DNA of 64,000 nucleotides, taken from a phage. The stretch lies in the sequence record PZ452611.1; one strand, 5' to 3'. The notes under the pieces are model-generated. The model did no database searches, had not been told where the DNA came from, and worked only from the letters and a program-made list of their open reading frames with translations. This document shows, piece after piece, positions 17-21,631 of the stretch (position 1 is the stretch's first letter; each line of letters begins with the position of its first letter). A program made the position numbers and the translations under genes.

Positions 17-361
17 ATGTCCACACTGTGGCGAAAACCTGATTACCGTTTTCATCCTTCGGATTATGGTGGGTATTTACCGGAGGATGATGTAAACCCC
101 TGGTTTCCTGAATTTATAGCTCCACGTGATGCCTATCCAAAAATAACTTGCGGCTGGATAGGCAATGGATTTATAATCCCGGCCACAAAACCTGTCCCGC
201 AAATAGTTGACGCGGTTAGCGGGTATTCCATGCAACACGCCAAGCTGGGTGGAAAGAGTGCAAGAACGAAGATGATCCGAAGCCTCACGCCACGTGGCTG
301 GGCAAAAGCCGTATTCTTAGCAAACGAGCCTGTAGTAAGGAGCAGAATTAATGGGAAGTAA
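17..361 (+). CDS. hypothetical protein
   Basis: 114-aa ORF; ATG at 17 after AGGGG; stop overlaps start of next gene (ATGGGAAGTAA); no motif recognised. Confidence 0.4.
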   Translation: MSTLWRKPDYRFHPSDYGGYLPEDDVNPWFPEFIAPRDAYPKITCGWIGNGFIIPATKPVPQIVDAVSGYSMQHAKLGGKSARTKMIRSLTPRGWAKAVFLANEPVVRSRINGK

Positions 362-2429
362 ATTTATGGCATCTGCATACAACCGTTTCGGTGAGCCAAA
401 CCCGAAAGCAACTAAGTATAAAAGTGGGGGAAGTGTGAAACGAGACTATCGTGATGAAAAAGAGGTTGAAACTGTAGAGACTGTTTTAGAAAATACTAAA
501 ATCGTCCCTGTCCCACAACAAAATATCGGTCTGATGGCTGCACAATATTTTGGTGTGCGATCAGCATTGTCCCAAGAAGACGGTGTGACAGTTACTGCAA
601 CATATTTCCCATATTACGACCGCTACGGGAATCTGTCCGGTTTCAAAAAGCGTGACTGGACGATCCCCAAAGAGCAACGTGGGCACTTTACGACGGTTGG
701 GATCGTAAAGGCTAACTCCCAAATGTTTGGGCAAAAGCTGTGTGCATCTTCTAACAACCGTAAGCAGATTAACGTTTGTGAGGGGGAAGGCGATGTTATT
801 GCAGCATGGCAGGCTGCATATCAGATACAAGTAAAAGGGATTCTCACCAACGCTAAAGCCCCGGCAAAGGTGAAACAGTGGGCTAAAGAGGTCCAGGACG
901 GGATCGATGCAGTTATCAACGGGGGTGATCTGGCAGGAAAACCCTGCCTGCCTTTTGTTGGAATTAACTGTGGATGTGCAAACGCAGTAGATACTTTTGC
1001 AAACAATGAGAAATTTATCCGTAGCTACGGAACAGTGGTCCTTGCAATGGACAACGATGCAGCTAACGAGGTAGAGAAGCAAAAACACGTTATCAAAGGT
1101 GTTGAAGCCACACATAATATCGCGGCATTTTTGATGGCGGATAACGTTTACCACGTGGAATACCCCAGTGAGGTAAACGACCCTGACGGTGTAAAAGATA
1201 TCCGTGACATGCTGAAGGCTAAAAAGCTGGAAGATATTGTCAACATGTTCCGTCACCCAGTCAAATATGTGCCCGATGCTGTATCTGATTTAGAAGACTT
1301 CTCCATTGAATCTCTTCGTAAGAAGACTTCTAATGGCGTAGATATCAGCGCGGAGTTCCCTAAATTGCAGAAGATGCTGAAAGGACTCCACAAAGGCACC
1401 TTGATGATGCTGACAGGCCCATCTGGCGGTGGTAAAACAACTGTAGCCAAGAAACTAGAACACTGCATTGCAAAATACTTGATGGATCCGACATGCCCTA
1501 AAGCCGATGATTATGAAGAGGATGATCGCCTGTGTCTGATTCACCTTGAAGAGGACCCTGAGGAAGCAATTAACTCTCTATACGCCAACCAGTTGGGGTT
1601 TGATGTTAAAGAGTTTGTTGAAGACCCTAGTCAGTTCCTGACTGATCAGGAGCATGCTGAGATTCACCAATCTTGGGCCAAGGCTGGAAAAATCAAAGTG
1701 TTCAAGCATTTTGGGTCTATTCCTGTAGATGAGTTGATCACTAAGCTTAAACAAATGGTGTGTCTGTATCACTGCCGTTACATTGTGCTGGATCACCTGT
1801 CCATGGTAATTTCAGGGCTTAATGTTAAGGATGAGCGCAAAGAACTTGACATGGCTATGACGCAACTAGCCGCGTTCTGCAAGCAGTTTAATGTATTTAT
1901 CTTGGTGATCGCTCACCTGAAACGCATAGAGATTGTGCCTCCAAAGGACAAGGATGGGAATCCGTTACCTTTCTGGTATCCTGTACGAAAAGAGAACCTT
2001 CGGGGTAGTGCCGGATTGGAGCAACTTAGCTGGGTAGTTGTTGGGGTGGAGGCAGAAGAGATGGTGGATCGTTCCCGTGGACGTGTCCGACTGGTAGGTC
2101 TTAAAAACCGCCCAGCAAAAACGTTAGGCATTGCGGATACCTTAGTTATGGATCCCCACACAGGTAAGTTCCATGATGCCAGCAACTGGTACTGGGACAA
2201 AGAAATGCAGATGTTCACAGACGGCGAAGGTGGGGAGGTTGTTTGGAGACCTCAAGCTATGTTTGAGGATCAAGGGCACGCAGTTGTAGAAACACCTGTA
2301 GGTAGGGTTGTGGCTGATAAGGTTGTAACTCCTACTGTTAACCCTGTTGACACACAAGAAGACCTCCCGTATGATGATCCGTCCTCTGACCATGTTCCCG
2401 GTTTTGAGGATGATGAAACACCTTTTTAA
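351..2429 (+). CDS. DNA primase/helicase (TOPRIM primase domain fused to DnaB/T7 gp4-like helicase)
   Basis: RBS AAGGAG 8 nt upstream; TOPRIM motifs VCEGEGD and LAMDNDAANE; Walker A LTGPSGGGKTTVAKK; helicase-type C-terminal half; no N-terminal Cys4 zinc finger seen. Confidence 0.85.
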   Translation: MGSKFMASAYNRFGEPNPKATKYKSGGSVKRDYRDEKEVETVETVLENTKIVPVPQQNIGLMAAQYFGVRSALSQEDGVTVTATYFPYYDRYGNLSGFKKRDWTIPKEQRGHFTTVGIVKANSQMFGQKLCASSNNRKQINVCEGEGDVIAAWQAAYQIQVKGILTNAKAPAKVKQWAKEVQDGIDAVINGGDLAGKPCLPFVGINCGCANAVDTFANNEKFIRSYGTVVLAMDNDAANEVEKQKHVIKGVEATHNIAAFLMADNVYHVEYPSEVNDPDGVKDIRDMLKAKKLEDIVNMFRHPVKYVPDAVSDLEDFSIESLRKKTSNGVDISAEFPKLQKMLKGLHKGTLMMLTGPSGGGKTTVAKKLEHCIAKYLMDPTCPKADDYEEDDRLCLIHLEEDPEEAINSLYANQLGFDVKEFVEDPSQFLTDQEHAEIHQSWAKAGKIKVFKHFGSIPVDELITKLKQMVCLYHCRYIVLDHLSMVISGLNVKDERKELDMAMTQLAAFCKQFNVFILVIAHLKRIEIVPPKDKDGNPLPFWYPVRKENLRGSAGLEQLSWVVVGVEAEEMVDRSRGRVRLVGLKNRPAKTLGIADTLVMDPHTGKFHDASNWYWDKEMQMFTDGEGGEVVWRPQAMFEDQGHAVVETPVGRVVADKVVTPTVNPVDTQEDLPYDDPSSDHVPGFEDDETPF

Positions 2430-2487: not shown

Positions 2488-4911
2488 ATGAGCATGTGGT
2501 CTTTCGATTTTGAGTCATCCGGTTTGCTGGAAGACCCAGATCTTTATTATCACTGCGGCCTGTTTAAAGAGTTGAATAAGAACCGTTTTATGCTGTTCCT
2601 TCCTCTGAATGACCGCACACACTACTCCGAGGAGGATATAGAGAAGGCTAAGAACTTTATTCTGGCAAAGAAAACTCTTTATAAGGATTTTGAAGTTCGC
2701 ATAGCAGATTTTTCAGAGTTGGAAGGTTGGCTTACAGGCAATTCTGACTGGTCACCCACAGCTTTGAACTGCCACAACTGCTACAGCTACGACTTTATGC
2801 TGATGGAGAGATTGTCCGGTATTCATTTTGATATGTTCCGTGATCCTAAGTGCATGGGGACTATCAACGACCACCAGGTTAATCTGTTTGATACGTTGGC
2901 GATGAGCCGAATCTTGTGGCCTGATCGCCCTTTACCAAAAGGTTGTCCGGACTCTGTATTCAACCCGGTTACTAAGAAAATGCAGCCTGTTGGTCCTCAC
3001 GGCCTTATGGCATGGGGCTACGCCCTTGGTAACCAGAAAGTTCAAATTGATGACTGGCGCGATCTTCCGTTGTGGAAGTATGTGGATCGTGTATTCGAGG
3101 ACGTTATCATCCAGGAGCTGCTCTGGAAAGAGCTGGTAGCGGAATCAAAAGGTGTATTCTACGGCAAATCTGACATGCAGAACTTTATGTACGATCCAGC
3201 CAAAGAGAAGCCGAAAGGGTTCAAGAAGATCACCTGGAAGAACGCATTACGTCGAGGCATGCTGCAGCACTTCCTGATGGAGCTGCAGGCCCGTCAGGGT
3301 GTATACTTCGACATAGATGGAGCTATTGCTTTACGTGACCGTTGCGATGCGTGGATGAAAGAAATCGCTGATCGTGTTGAACCACAACTACCTTTAAAAG
3401 AGCTGTCAATGTCTCAGCGGCCCAAGTTCCCTGAAAAGCCGTTTAACCAAGACGGGACAATCTCTAATAATGGTTGGAAATGGTTAAAAGATAAGCTTGG
3501 CTATCCTGTAGACATGAGTGCTTTAGAGTTCAAAGCCCCGCCTAAGCGAGCATTTACCTCTACAGGAGATGTCAGCAAGATGGGGATAAAATGGTGTGAA
3601 GAGATGGGCTGCAAAGACCCCGATAAGATGGCTGATTTCTTGAGAGGCTATATTAAGGGCACCTCCACACCACAACCCTTACCTAAAGAGCTGATGGATC
3701 AGGCAATAAGTGATCTGCAGCAGAAGCGAATGCCTGACTGCAAGATACCTATGAAAATCAGCAATCAGGACGACATCAAGCGATACCTAATCAGTGCTGG
3801 TTGGCTCCCAACAATGTGGAGAACTAAAGATGTAACTAAAGACAGCAAGAAGAAAGCTTTACCTGATGCAGATGTTGATGCACGAGTATATGCATATATG
3901 GACGAGCTTTTGGAGTCAGAGTATTGTGACCTAATTATCAACTTCTGGAACAAAACTGATGCTAAGTTCCAGACAACCGTGCACAAGTTCCGAAGCTTTC
4001 CTAACTCCGAAAGGATTAAAAAGGAAGTATTCGGGAAAATACGTAGAAAAGCCAGGGCACTTATTACTTCTCCGCAACTGAAAGATACGTTTGGACACCT
4101 GTGTCCGAATCTTGAAAAATTGAACGGAGAGATGGCTAAAGATATCGTCTTGTGGTTATCATTGCGAAACCGCAGATCGGTCCTTGATCCAATCAAGGAG
4201 GATAAGGTTGATACTGGTCTTCTTAATCACCCACGTTTGAAGATTGACCATAAGCTTCCTGCTAAAAGCTCTGGATTAACAAACACTTCCAGACAGAAAC
4301 ACAGTATTTGTGCAAACATGCCTAAACCATCTCCTAAAGTGGTTATGGGTAAAGAGATGCGTAGTCTGTGGGGTGTTCCTCCGGGATACTTTGAGATCGG
4401 TATTGACGGGTCCAACTTAGAGCAGCTTATCGGGGCTTGGGGTGCCTTTGAGTTCGACAACGGCTTGTATTATGATGTTGTAAGTAACGGAGACGCACAC
4501 CAAAACAATGCTGAGGCATATACAAAAGTAGCAGGCAGAGAGGTGTCCCGTAACGACGGTAAACCTATCACGTATGGGGTTATGTACGGGGCACAAAAAG
4601 ATAAAGTTGCAGATATGCTGGACATCTCCCCAGAGTTGGGACAAAGGGTAATCGATGCACTCTGGGATGCCAACCCAGGTCTTAAGGGGCGCAAAGAGGA
4701 TCTGGAGAAATTCTGGGAAGCAACAGGTAAGAAGTTTATCTACTCTTTTGATGGTCATGCTATCTGGACCCGATCTAAACACTCTTTACTTAATGCATAC
4801 CAACAAAATGGCGGTGCATCGTTGTGTGACTTAGTTGGAATACTCATGCACCACCAGATGGTGAAGCGTGGGTGGTACGATGAAGGTGTTCGTCGTATTA
4901 TTTATTACCAT
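2488..4911 (+). CDS. DNA polymerase, family A (T7 gp5-like), exon 1: 3'-5' exo domain plus polymerase motifs A and B
   Basis: RBS AAGGAGA; exo I motif FDFESSG; motif A EIGIDGSNLEQL...FEFDNG (T7 GADASGLELR...FDNG); motif B ITYGVMYGAQ; frame stops right after His of motif C (IIYYH-K-stop). Confidence 0.85.
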
Positions 4912-5187
4912 AAATAACATTGTGGCTTCATAGAGTAATCTATGTCGAATAACCTCTTTAACTGCGGGAAGCCTAAACCTTATGGCAAGGTAATCCGCAA
5001 CGAAGCGCTCAAAAGAGCGAACGCTCAGAGGCCATTCCGAAAGGAAGTAGACCAGCAAGTGCGGTCGAAATGGGAGGATTCCTGTGGTTGCTTATCATAG
5101 GAATATGAGATGGTCCGATCCTACGTGAAAACGTATGGCTATGCACGTAATGGTGCGGGGTAGCTTAACGACCTACCTGAACTATTG
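4912..5187 (+). ncRNA. putative group I self-splicing intron (ORF-less) interrupting the DNA polymerase gene
   Basis: 276-nt insert exactly within motif C; follows a U (4911) and ends with G (5187); GUGG 4922-4925 can pair with exon CCAU (P1); P/Q/R/S-like elements aactgcgggaag (4960-4971), aatccgcaac (4992-5001), gtagaccagc, gagatggtcc; stops in polymerase frame. Confidence 0.55.
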
Positions 5188-5541
5188 GATGAGTACCAAC
5201 TTCAAGTGCCTGACACACCGAAGTATAAGACTGTGTACACCTTCGACACAATTGAAGAACTGGAAGCATTTAAGGCAGAGCAGGAAGCCAAACTTCATGT
5301 GTTCGACGGTCATAAGTACAAAAAGGCACGCAAGGATGAGGACGGAAACGAAGTGGTTGACAGAGACGGAAACACGGTGTACGATCCTATCCTGAACGAT
5401 AACGGAAAGCTTGAACTTATCTGGAGCCCTGTGGGTGAAATGGTGGTGCATTGCTTCTGGCAAGCTTCTAAAATGATGGGAGTCCCGTTCCAGATCACAG
5501 GTGAATACTTGTGTGGTAGTAACTGGGGTGATTGTCACTAA
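5188..5541 (+). CDS. DNA polymerase, family A, exon 2: rest of motif C (DEYQLQV) and C-terminus
   Basis: Same frame as exon 1; no ATG/RBS of its own (frame opens after stop at 5161-5163); ends GSNWGDCH, matching Pol I-type C-terminus (E. coli GENWDQAH). Confidence 0.75.
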   Translation, partial: DEYQLQVPDTPKYKTVYTFDTIEELEAFKAEQEAKLHVFDGHKYKKARKDEDGNEVVDRDGNTVYDPILNDNGKLELIWSPVGEMVVHCFWQASKMMGVPFQITGEYLCGSNWGDCH

Positions 5542-5590
5542 TGTAAACTATCAGCACAAGGAGGTGCTGTTGAGCAAAGAGGAGACTTTT

Positions 5591-5875
5591 ATGGTAGTAG
5601 AGCCAACAAAAACATTTACATCCATGACCATTCCTGTTATTATGCAGGTGGAGTGTGTTCAGGTATCTCAAGTGTGGCCTGGCACCAAAATCCCAACAGG
5701 GCCTGATTTCTTTCAGGTTGGGAAAGTGTACAATGTCTGGAAGGCACCAGATTGTTACCCTTTCATTAAAGATGAACGTGGGATGCTGTGGTATCTTGGA
5801 AATGACTTGACACTGCACCTTGGGAATGCTATTATTGCAGTATTCAGATTTAACAAGAAGGAGACCGATCAATGA
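5591..5875 (+). CDS. hypothetical protein
   Basis: ATG with GAGGAG RBS 6 nt upstream; track ORF 5501-5875 trimmed to this start. Confidence 0.45.
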   Translation: MVVEPTKTFTSMTIPVIMQVECVQVSQVWPGTKIPTGPDFFQVGKVYNVWKAPDCYPFIKDERGMLWYLGNDLTLHLGNAIIAVFRFNKKETDQ

Positions 5876-6099
5876 CGACTTTGGTTAAAGCTACCTTTGT
5901 AGAAGAAAAGATGACAGACATGTCATTCTTTAAAGAAGGAAAGACCTACGAGGTTTATTACGATAAAGCTCGTGCAAACAAAATGATTAAAGACGAGGAA
6001 GGGGTTGACTGGTATATCTCTCACCTGGCAAACGGTGAGTATCATATCTACGGAACCACTTTGCTTGCCAAGTTTGTAGTTGTTGAAGAGGACCTATGA
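5872..6099 (+). CDS. hypothetical protein
   Basis: RBS AAGGAGA; ATGA start/stop overlap with upstream gene. Confidence 0.45.
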   Translation: MTTLVKATFVEEKMTDMSFFKEGKTYEVYYDKARANKMIKDEEGVDWYISHLANGEYHIYGTTLLAKFVVVEEDL

Positions 6100-6290
6100 A
6101 AGTAAAGTATCTTGCTGAAGGTATGAATAGGTATTTTACCCTTGGTGAAGAATATTGGCCCTTTACAAACAACGGCGATGTCTACGTGAAAGATAATTTC
6201 GGCACGCCGTGGTTTCTGCACTCTAATGGGCTGGGATACTCCATTTACTGCGGTGCAGTGAACAACACAACTCTTGCAGAGTTCGTTTAG
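6096..6290 (+). CDS. hypothetical protein
   Basis: RBS GAAGAGGA; coupled to upstream gene. Confidence 0.4.
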   Translation: MKVKYLAEGMNRYFTLGEEYWPFTNNGDVYVKDNFGTPWFLHSNGLGYSIYCGAVNNTTLAEFV

Positions 6291-6300
6291 AGGAGGTAGG

Positions 6301-6672
6301 ATGTTAGTAAAAGGTACCCACACAGTCAAACAACGTATTGAAGTTGAGATTGATGATTGTGAGCTGAAGCATATTTTACGGTCATGCTCCAACGTTTTGC
6401 TCCTTAGTATTCTTCAGGAGCGAGCGGAGAATGAGTTCTTAAATGCATTGGCAGGCCGTCCCGGTGACTTCTGTGTGCGTAAGCGTGGTGACAACAAGTC
6501 ATGGTTGTGGGAAATCGATGCCGACTGGGATTACCACAAAAATGAGGGTATAGATGAGCCTATTCGTGAACTGACTGAAAACGAAGTTCAGATGTACGAA
6601 GATGTTTGCCAGTGGGCAAAAAGTCAACAAACCTACCTTGATCCTTGGTGGATGATTGAAAATAGTCGTTGA
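6301..6672 (+). CDS. hypothetical protein
   Basis: ATG 6301 after GAGGAGG; track ORF 6274-6672 trimmed. Confidence 0.45.
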   Translation: MLVKGTHTVKQRIEVEIDDCELKHILRSCSNVLLLSILQERAENEFLNALAGRPGDFCVRKRGDNKSWLWEIDADWDYHKNEGIDEPIRELTENEVQMYEDVCQWAKSQQTYLDPWWMIENSR

Positions 6673-6697
6673 CAAGAAGTAAGGTTAGATGTAAGAT
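6669..6697 (+). promoter_or_regulatory. sigma70-like promoter
   Basis: TTGACA-17-TAAGAT. Confidence 0.45.
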
Positions 6698-6748
6698 ACT
6701 CCTCACAAACAGAGTATTGATTGTTAAATAATTAAGGAGACCTCTAAG

Positions 6749-7003
6749 ATGAAAATCATGTTGAAACCAGAATGCGTTGCAAACGACCGAGCTTTTAAAG
6801 ATTGCACACTTGGCGCTACTTATGAAGCAGAGTTTTGTGAGAACCCTTTGGTAAAAGCCCTTTTGGAAGAAGGGGCCCCTCTATCACAAGAAGAGCTTGA
6901 TGAGCTGGAAAACTCAGCACAGTGCCTTACCTTTAAAGATGATGAAGGAGACTCTGTCTGGTGCACTGTTAACGAAGTAGTTTTTGTAAAAACTGAACAT
7001 TAA
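6749..7003 (+). CDS. hypothetical protein (tandem paralogue 1)
   Basis: RBS TAAGGAGA; shares KPE..NDRAFKDCT and GDSVWCT motifs with 7067-7327. Confidence 0.5.
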   Translation: MKIMLKPECVANDRAFKDCTLGATYEAEFCENPLVKALLEEGAPLSQEELDELENSAQCLTFKDDEGDSVWCTVNEVVFVKTEH

Positions 7004-20845: not shown

Positions 20846-20900
20846 ACAATCAACGGGGAGCTAATCCCCACCACCACAAAAACCAGAAAGGAGAAACAAA

Positions 20901-21101
20901 ATGAGCAACAATATCCGCGTTATTAACTTCAAAAAAGAAGAAAAAATTGCCGTGCTGATTGACGGTCAAGAAATCTTCAAGGGCGACTATGAAGATCATC
21001 AAACGGCGATTAGTATCACTCGCGTGATTGGTTACCATAATTTCTACCCCCAAGGCGCTGAGGCAGCAGTTAAACGAATCAAAGAGATTGTAGGCCTGTA
21101 A
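20901..21101 (+). CDS. hypothetical protein
   Basis: promoter-like 20817-20845; hairpin; RBS AAAGGAG. Confidence 0.5.
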   Translation: MSNNIRVINFKKEEKIAVLIDGQEIFKGDYEDHQTAISITRVIGYHNFYPQGAEAAVKRIKEIVGL

Positions 21102-21150
21102 AATTTATTTTTAGATGGCCTTGACTTCAGGGCCATCAATAAAGTAAATT
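21100..21150. repeat. intergenic palindromic element, copy 3
   Basis: identical core to copy 2; after stop codon. Confidence 0.6.
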
Positions 21151-21192
21151 TAAACCCTGTTAAAATAATCAGTGCAAAAAGGAGTAATGATC

Positions 21193-21492
21193 ATGTTTAT
21201 ACCCGCCAATAATCTTTATTTCTTTGATGGTCAGATCGTAGACGGTGTGGAAGTGGAGATCACTGGGTGCCCTGGTGGTCAGGCTATGACTTTTCGGAAT
21301 AATGCCTTTGATGATTCTCGTATCGTTATGAGAATGGAAGTTACAAAGCTGGACGACAAGAAAACGCTCATTGACTATTCCGTGAAAGATCATCCAGACT
21401 ACCACATGATCTATGGTGATTTGTGTATTGTTGACCGTGACAAGGTGGGCGGCATTGTGATCGCTATTGTGAACGATGTTTTCTCTGAATAA
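21193..21492 (+). CDS. hypothetical protein
   Basis: ATG 8 nt after AAAAGGAG. Confidence 0.45.
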   Translation: MFIPANNLYFFDGQIVDGVEVEITGCPGGQAMTFRNNAFDDSRIVMRMEVTKLDDKKTLIDYSVKDHPDYHMIYGDLCIVDRDKVGGIVIAIVNDVFSE

Positions 21493-21631
21493 TTCCGGCA
21501 AATGATGCAAAATAAGGCCCCTAGCAGGGCCTGCAGCGATATAATCACATAAAGGCTATGCGGTTGCATGGCCTTTATTATTTTAGCGTTACAGCGTCCC
21601 CAAGGCGCTTAAAAAATTTTTAAAGAAGTAC

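Follow-up and report, generated by a model that had tools for sequence, protein, structure and literature searches.

Group I introns are removed from RNA by a guanosine-initiated transesterification reaction that proceeds in two steps. Self-splicing introns of subgroup IA2 have been found in highly conserved catalytic regions of the family A DNA polymerase genes of the phages SPO1, SP82, Bastille, and Pf-WMP3, where a peripheral loop carries the genes of the HNH nicking endonucleases I-HmuI, I-HmuII, I-BasI, and I-PfoP3I. Their insertion site corresponds to position 674 of E. coli DNA polymerase I (Pol I), and not to position 881, at which the T7-like phages ΦI and W31 (2004) carry IA2 introns with an HNH gene in P6a (PMC3428280). 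In Pectobacterium phage CB7, which belongs to the same subfamily as Escherichia phage rV5, RT-PCR and Sanger sequencing showed that an intron at the same site as the one described below is spliced in infected cells (PMC7344957, Table 3).

The rV5 polymerase intron is itself already known. An identical 276-nt copy is present at the same position in phage LL12 (MH491969, 2018), in which the CDS is a two-part join annotated as 'intron-interrupted gene; intron splice site predicted based on homology', and in phage RudolfGeigy (MZ501102, BASEL, 2021), also with a joined CDS. Phage MaxTheCat (MZ501094, BASEL) has an identical 276-nt intron as well; both BASEL phages were reportedly described by Maffei et al. 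in 2021. The intron annotations of LL12 and RudolfGeigy rest on homology, not on RNA. The novelty of the intron had been left undecided in an earlier reading made from the letters of the DNA (the sequence-only reading). The intron is not new, and the finding is an ordinary one, because identical copies were already annotated in these sister phages.

The DNA analyzed here, a stretch of 64,000 nucleotides (the window), is that of Escherichia phage rV5. Over 2488-5541, its polymerase region, it agrees in every base with Escherichia phage rV5/V5 (NC_011041, DQ832317) and O157 typing phage 5 (100% identity), and about 110 further Vequintavirus genomes match it at 94-98%. The sequence-only reading had placed the stop of the polymerase frame at 4915-4917, directly after the motif C His, and had the frame reopen after a stop at 5161-5163 and continue from 5188 as DEYQLQV... 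to GSNWGDCH. Both placements were confirmed, with the upstream ORF ending in ...RRIIYYHK and the downstream frame stopping at 5541. Its proposal that joining 4911 to 5188 recreates motif C was also borne out. The join gave a 925-aa protein that reads ...IIYYH/DEYQLQV... (the slash marks the junction here and below), with ...IIYYHDEYQLQVPDTPK as the predicted junction peptide, and this product equals RudolfGeigy QXV84155.1 residue for residue. Exon 1 aligned to T7 gp5 as far as ...WVH653, and in the spliced product YYH/DEYQL of rV5 aligned with WVH653-D654-E655-IQV of T7 (E 1.5e-13). Motif C is therefore interrupted between its His and its catalytic Asp (T7 gp5 H653/D654). The Pfam DNA_pol_A match ended at residue 742 in the unspliced protein and at residue 822 in the spliced one, crossing the junction only after splicing. 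Both scores, 31.8 spliced and 27.9 unspliced, were under the curated cut-off of 34.3, and the T7 gp5 alignment is the better evidence.

Comparison with intron-less relatives defined the ends of the insert. In phage JeffSchatz the two exon flanks are contiguous at 4911/5188, with zero extra bases (...TATTACCAT/GATGAGTAC...), and both boundaries are thereby fixed to the base. A 400-nt query, made of both exon flanks fused at 4911/5188, was matched in one piece with 90-98% identity by at least 14 relatives besides JeffSchatz, among the matches listed. Relatives with an uninterrupted junction include JeffSchatz, EdH4, A51.2, JohannBauhin, slur16, V18, and JES2013. Removal of the insert regained a continuous frame in agreement with these intron-less homologues.

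The insert at 4912-5187 is almost certainly a group I intron of subgroup IA2, placed in the polymerase gene between the His and Asp codons of motif C. A covariance search with the Rfam group I model RF00028 (Intron_gpI) matched 4902-5137 with 64.7 bits (E 4e-14), above the gathering score of 50 bits and over model positions 1-253 of 253. It remained the sole Rfam match of the 64-kb window when the limit was relaxed to E ≤ 0.05, and ARAGORN detected no tRNA genes there. The helices P9.1 and P9.2 are regarded as extra peripheral helices, since the Rfam match ends at 5137. The mark of subgroup IA2 is a pair of additional helices, P7.1 and P7.2, that lie between P7 and P3' and are linked by G-U-A (PMC3428280). 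The rV5 intron has both, with an invariant GUA connecting them, and is therefore assigned to IA2.

The features of the locus are collected in Table 1. At the in-frame stop, 9/10 homologues have AAAUAA, AAGUAA, or AGGUGA, and the wobble U4911·G4922, which marks the 5' splice site, is a U·G in all ten. P1 is otherwise invariant, except for one wobble change at one pair, and the internal guide CAUUGUGG (4918-4925) can pair without interruption with the ligated exons CCAU/GAUG to form P1 and P10. Compensatory substitutions maintain the conserved core P3-P8, with its P3/P7 pseudoknot. The P7 pseudoknot constitutes the guanosine-binding core; in this alignment P7 showed a compensatory change from U-A to C-G, with both-side changes in 1/5 pairs. 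The loop of P6 is the site of the HNH endonuclease gene in relatives.

Table 1. Positions of the polymerase exons, the intron, and its predicted RNA elements in the window (cells are pair positions in the alignment of homologues)
Feature	Position	Strand	Description
Primase-helicase	351-2429		upstream of polymerase
Polymerase ORF	2488..4917	+	ends ...RRIIYYHK, then TAA at 4915-4917
Exon 1, family A DNA polymerase	2488..4911	+	808 codons; last codon CAT 4909-4911, motif C His
Intron	4912..5187	+	276 nt, no ORF; follows T4911, last base G5187
In-frame UAA	4915..4917	+	one codon inside intron
P1	4908..4925	+	exon/intron CCAU/AA 4908-4913 with internal guide UUGUGG 4920-4925; helix 1, 100% paired
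P10 guide part	4918..4921	+	CAUU, can pair with exon-2 GAUG 5188-5191; 37/40 cells paired
P2 hairpin	4929..4944	+	6 bp, GUAA tetraloop; both-side changes in 5/6 pairs, 100% paired
P3	4953..4958 with 5072-5077	+	CCUCUU with GGGAGG; 3/6 pairs compensatory, 100% paired
P4-P5 domain	4963..4999	+	
P4	4963-4968 with 4994-4999		UGCGGG with UCCGCA
P5	4972-4974 with 4988-4990		short
P6 hairpin	5006..5019	+	CGCUC AAAA GAGCG; both-side changes in 5/5 pairs
P7	5030..5034 with 5111-5115	+	GGCCA (R element) with UGGUC (S element); 50/50 cells paired
P7.1	5035-5046	+	UUCC-GAAA-GGAA
GUA linker	5047-5049	+	invariant (alignment columns G144 T145 A146)
P7.2	5050-5056 with 5061-5066	+	57/60 cells paired; compensatory changes
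P8 hairpin	5078..5104	+	9 bp; 5/6 counted pairs compensatory
P9	5120-5126 with 5131-5138	+	GAAA loop; 4 compensatory pairs
P9.1	5143-5146 with 5153-5156	+	2 compensatory pairs
P9.2	5159-5163 with 5173-5177	+	3 compensatory pairs
Omega G	5187	+	terminal guanosine, 3' splice site; invariant in 10/10 homologues (column G284)
Exon 2, polymerase	5188..5541	+	117 codons and stop; first codons are the catalytic Asp-Glu of motif C; ends GSNWGDCH

The candidate group I intron proposed by the sequence-only reading is thus upheld by the RF00028 match, the intron-less alleles, the T7 gp5 alignment, and the covariation among ten homologues presented below. Its description of a 276-nt insert that follows a U and ends in G was correct (T4911, G5187), as was the pairing of GUGG 4922-4925 with exon CCAU in P1, with U4911 in the wobble with G4922. 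Also correct was its statement that ORFs of 60 aa or more are absent from the insert: the largest one wholly inside has 52 aa (4942..5100) and gave no match to Pfam or PHROG. The P/Q/R/S-like blocks were right in part: P and Q are the two strands of P4, whereas the R/S assignment failed, since 'gtagaccagc' belongs to P7.2 and not to P7. This block (5047-5056), considered as the R element, instead comprises the GUA linker and the 5' strand of P7.2, and in its pairing with 'gatggtcc' the fourth pair fails in 8/10 homologues with no compensation.

Covariation was evaluated in ten introns inserted at the same site in six phage groups, which aligned well in MAFFT after removal of internal ORFs: rV5 (276 nt), HMD-6 (328 nt), JLBYU08 (329 nt), I29 (842 nt), SSE-121 (771 nt), PVP-SE1 (919 nt), Avunavirus 18-1-2 (317 nt), Vibrio phage K470 (254 nt), Pseudomonas phage SPA01 (792 nt), and Aeromonas phage phiA009 (843 nt). 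The scored structure consisted of 60 pairs in 14 helices. Standard pairs occupied 98.4% of the cells, compared with 33-43% in controls in which the 3' partners were slid by 1-3 columns, an agreement somewhat inflated by the derivation of the structure from the rV5 sequence and by the relatedness of the ten homologues. Both sides had changed in 33/60 pairs, versus 4-13 in the slid controls, and the covariation score was 0.495 versus 0.206 in shuffles, with 0/500 shuffles reaching as high a value. The slid controls speak strongly against an artifact. Most compensatory changes were located in P2, P3, P6, P7.2, P8, P9, and P9.2. P1 and the two counted pairs of P4 gave no covariation information because they are essentially invariant; the count for P4 was limited to its two outer pairs, since MAFFT misplaces a one-base bulge of this helix in six homologues. 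The minimum free energy fold of the rV5 sequence alone contained all nested helices (P1-P6, P7.1, P7.2, P8, P9, P9.1, and P9.2; z = -2.58). Rfam scores of endonuclease-bearing homologues fell under the gathering score (I29, 41.1 bits; SSE-121, 39.3 bits; CB7, 46.6 bits), and SPA01 and phiA009 had no Rfam match at E ≤ 0.001, presumably because ORF inserts of 400-600 nt break the model. These ORF-bearing introns were assigned by their exon junctions and by alignment after excision of the ORF.

All sequence elements needed for the group I reaction are present and conserved in the rV5 intron. In the proposed mechanism, one pre-mRNA would be transcribed from the whole polymerase gene, and the intron would fold into the P1-P9.2 ribozyme. 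An external guanosine bound in P7 would attack the phosphodiester 3' of U4911, which P1 would present as a wobble with G4922. The guide would next position exon 2 through P10, and the 3'-OH of U4911, once free, would attack after G5187, ligating the exons. The predicted product is an mRNA for the 925-aa polymerase, with motif C (...YYHDEYQ...) intact. Ribosomes on unspliced RNA would halt at the UAA at 4915-4917, giving an 809-aa product without the catalytic Asp and Glu, and translation would stop before the ribozyme core; by analogy with T4 introns, this stop may help the RNA to fold. The analysis establishes the fold, exact boundaries, restored frame, and homology to spliced relatives; we infer catalysis and splicing in rV5 itself, for which the splicing of the CB7 intron at the same site provides good support.

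Other explanations of the interrupted gene were considered. If the insert stayed in the RNA, the two polymerase parts could be translated separately and assemble non-covalently, and split proteins are known, as exemplified by NrdA of Aeromonas phage Aeh1, which is split by mobE. Such an arrangement would agree with the two separate CDSs of RefSeq and several GenBank records, and TTG 5185-5187 and GTG 5207 could in principle start exon 2, although no purine-rich Shine-Dalgarno-like sequence was seen by eye just before it. One HNH-associated insert in another CB7 gene did not splice, but the CB7 homologue at the same site did (PMC7344957). A complete group I ribozyme score, with every helix kept by compensatory changes, would be unexpected if the fold were unused, and the break would separate the adjacent motif C residues, His and the catalytic Asp-Glu. 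A split polymerase is therefore considered very improbable. Much the same low probability is given to a decayed intron or pseudogene, in which the ribozyme would have become inactive after losing peripheral helices along with its endonuclease gene, with the polymerase gene non-functional or rescued otherwise. The core helices, the U·G wobble, the omega G, and the GUA are all intact, and 24 records, from phages that form plaques and were isolated independently, retain the 276 nt at 97.5-100% identity. At 276 nt this is the smallest form among the E. coli-infecting relatives examined (the others have 328, 329, and 842 nt), with P5 and P7.1 shortened and no ORF; yet the smaller 254-nt K470 homologue has a higher Rfam score (77.3 versus 64.7 bits). 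One family A polymerase gene was found in the part of the window that was scanned, and the published rV5 description also gives one (PMC3606486).

A chance resemblance, or an insertion of another kind (an intein, a transposon remnant, or a sequencing or assembly artifact), has the smallest probability of the three, and is effectively already refuted. The length of 276 is divisible by three, as for an intein, but the insert contains four in-frame stops, of which the last is TAG 5161-5163, and it is therefore no intein. An E value of 4e-14 in Rfam argues against chance, and the presence of the identical sequence in many independent assemblies against an artifact. Inspection of the junction by eye revealed neither terminal repeats nor a target duplication, and the intron-less alleles are seamless. 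The group I intron thus remains the preferred explanation by a wide measure.

The rV5 intron is one of a family found at this site in Vequintavirinae and in other phages. Among E. coli vequintaviruses, at least five states of the site were found: empty, and occupied by 276, 328, 329, or 842 nt. The 842-nt form (I29, 2925-3766 of the examined locus) is the 328-nt form enlarged by an HNH gene that occupies the loop of P6, and in SSE-121, SPA01, and phiA009, P6 likewise holds a gene of HNH_3 type. The ORFs of I29, SSE-121, SPA01, and phiA009 matched HNH_3 in Pfam, those of SSE-121 and phiA009 only being above the curated cut-off. In PVP-SE1 (of the related genus Seunavirus; intron at 601-1519 of the examined locus), a LAGLIDADG gene (Pfam 1.4e-16) adjoins P7.1. 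The position of HNH genes in P6 and of the LAGLIDADG gene at P7.1 suggests that one ribozyme core was invaded independently by different endonuclease genes; such invasions of different loops are predicted by the endonuclease-invasion and collaborative-homing models (PMC3984707).

Not one base of the 276-nt form differs among rV5, RudolfGeigy, D1, and LL12 (100% identity), while their polymerase exons differ by 2.3-4.8%; between rV5 and D1, 96/105 exon differences fall on third codon positions. Had the intron changed as fast as the exons, a complete lack of differences from rV5 would have a probability of 2e-3 to 3e-5 in each comparison. The closest exon relative of RudolfGeigy is I29, the bearer of the 842-nt HNH form, and intron presence does not track exon similarity. 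These sequence comparisons suggest a recent horizontal spread of the ORF-less intron, by recombination or by homing in trans; tighter constraint on the intron, or mosaicism of the exons, may also play a part. The exon mismatch nearest to the junction relative to rV5 lies 54 nt upstream, alike in the intron-plus phages and in the intron-less phage, and no co-conversion tract was detectable in the exon comparison.

A homing-endonuclease ORF, by which a mobile intron is recognized, is lacking from the rV5 intron. A tblastn search with seven homologue endonucleases found no relatives of the homologues' HNH or LAGLIDADG genes in the 64-kb window, and the downstream ORFs in 5501-7000 gave no Pfam match (three scanned) and only PHROGs of unknown function (five scanned). 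With no endonuclease of its own, the rV5 intron is therefore not autonomously mobile, and any mobility would be in trans. That the ORF-less 276-nt form is an actively spreading element, and not a passive relic, is a tentative idea that we consider rather doubtful; if true, it would provide a natural, tractable system for an endonuclease-less intron mobilized in trans ('collaborative homing'). Mobilization could be due to a free-standing enzyme or to the HNH enzyme of a sibling intron; another possibility is that the intron is favored because it shields the target site from cleavage. In Vibrio phage K470, the ORF-less same-site intron (801-1054 of the examined locus) is without P7.1, and a free-standing gene annotated as an HNH endonuclease (1294-1839) follows directly after the polymerase stop, a layout that resembles the collaborative homing set-ups of other phages. 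Outside the window, the terminase intron of rV5 encodes an HNH endonuclease (NC_011041 59178-59570) that shares about 40% identity with the HNH of the I29-type polymerase intron. The same endonuclease family is therefore present elsewhere in the rV5 genome, and nothing suggests that this enzyme targets the polymerase site.

The intron is unrecognized only in the records of rV5 itself (NC_011041, DQ832317, and KP869103) and in the 2013 genome paper, which gives a 775-aa polymerase and mentions introns in the terminase gene only (PMC3606486). In the intron region (rv5_gp220-gp224), the RefSeq annotation has two CDSs named 'DNA polymerase' and two hypothetical proteins. Here rv5_gp220 is the truncated exon 2, labeled as a separate 'DNA polymerase'; rv5_gp222 (4942-5100) lies within the intron and rv5_gp221 (5135-5395) across its end, and both are artifacts; and rv5_gp224 (2496-2576) overlaps the N-terminus of the polymerase. 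The RefSeq polymerase CDS starts at 2591 (775 aa) versus 2488 here. The start is probably 103 nt further upstream, which would add an N-terminal DxE exonuclease motif. The 34 residues left out by RefSeq begin MSMWSFDFESSG, and their D-x-E resembles what we take to be the Exo I motif at the extreme N-terminus of T7 gp5 (D5, E7). The correct polymerase CDS is a single join of 2488-4911 and 5188-5541, encoding 925 aa; the exact spliced rV5 protein was absent from a collection of 15 billion proteins. The correction matters for RefSeq in that rV5 is the type phage of Vequintavirus. An 86-aa ORF (5135..5395, + strand) starts in the intron, enters exon 2 out of frame, and matched phrog_31536 (E 5e-60). 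It was rejected as a real gene, phrog_31536 (of unknown function) being read as the same mis-called ORF in rV5-like genomes. This family was probably built from that ORF; if so, it illustrates how an unrecognized intron can seed a spurious protein family.

The element is a textbook case of a phage group I intron, its site is a well-known hotspot, and its scientific weight is therefore small. The series of states at the site (empty, ORF-less, with HNH in P6, and with LAGLIDADG near P7.1) offers a clean natural example of the endonuclease gain and loss cycle, which could be used in mixed-infection experiments and might serve as a model of the spread of endonuclease-less introns.

The CB7 insertion separates CB7_51 (...RRIIYYH/K, followed by a stop) from CB7_49 (...LLDEYQLEV), as in rV5. 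Its P1 guide is the same as that of rV5 (CCAT/AAGTAACATTGTGGC), and the 3' ends are similar, with AAACTTTTG/GATGAA in CB7 and GAACTATTG/GATGAG in rV5. Unlike the rV5 intron, the CB7 intron, of about 690 nt, contains an HNH endonuclease gene, CB7_50. The CB7 polymerase gene holds a further group I intron, at an upstream position that is unoccupied in rV5. This upstream intron was seen, in coordinates of the examined loci, at 20865-21535 in CB7, 214-417 in 18-1-2, and 51-199 in SSE-121. In CB7 it lies in the motif B region, between ...GKGVTYG and MYGAQ..., and the matching rV5 site (about 4500, ...KPITYG/VMYGAQ...) is uninterrupted. The motif B-region site is outside the three sites described earlier (674, 676, and 881; PMC3428280). 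In an unrelated 43-kb Escherichia phage, ECO104 4-5-2, the family A polymerase gene is interrupted by a group I intron (1850-2536 of the examined locus, 51 bits). Its site, ...TGRLSASNP/N..., equals site 674 of SPO1, Bastille, and Pf-WMP3, and over some 80 nt its 3' end shares about 79% identity with that of the related I29 (rV5-type) intron. Such sequence similarity suggests that peripheral modules are common to introns at different sites.

Among the described introns, those of ΦI and W31 share the insertion site of the rV5 intron: as judged by the published site description (PMC3428280), the rV5 insertion is at site 881, exactly between His and Asp. Position 881 of Pol I is taken here to be the motif C His (H881-D882-E883). 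In both cases a family A polymerase gene of phages of enteric bacteria is interrupted by an IA2 intron, and the HNH gene lies in P6 in the relatives of the rV5 intron and in P6a in ΦI and W31. The rV5 intron differs from those of ΦI and W31 in having no ORF, and in residing in a 138-kb myovirus rather than in a T7-like podovirus.
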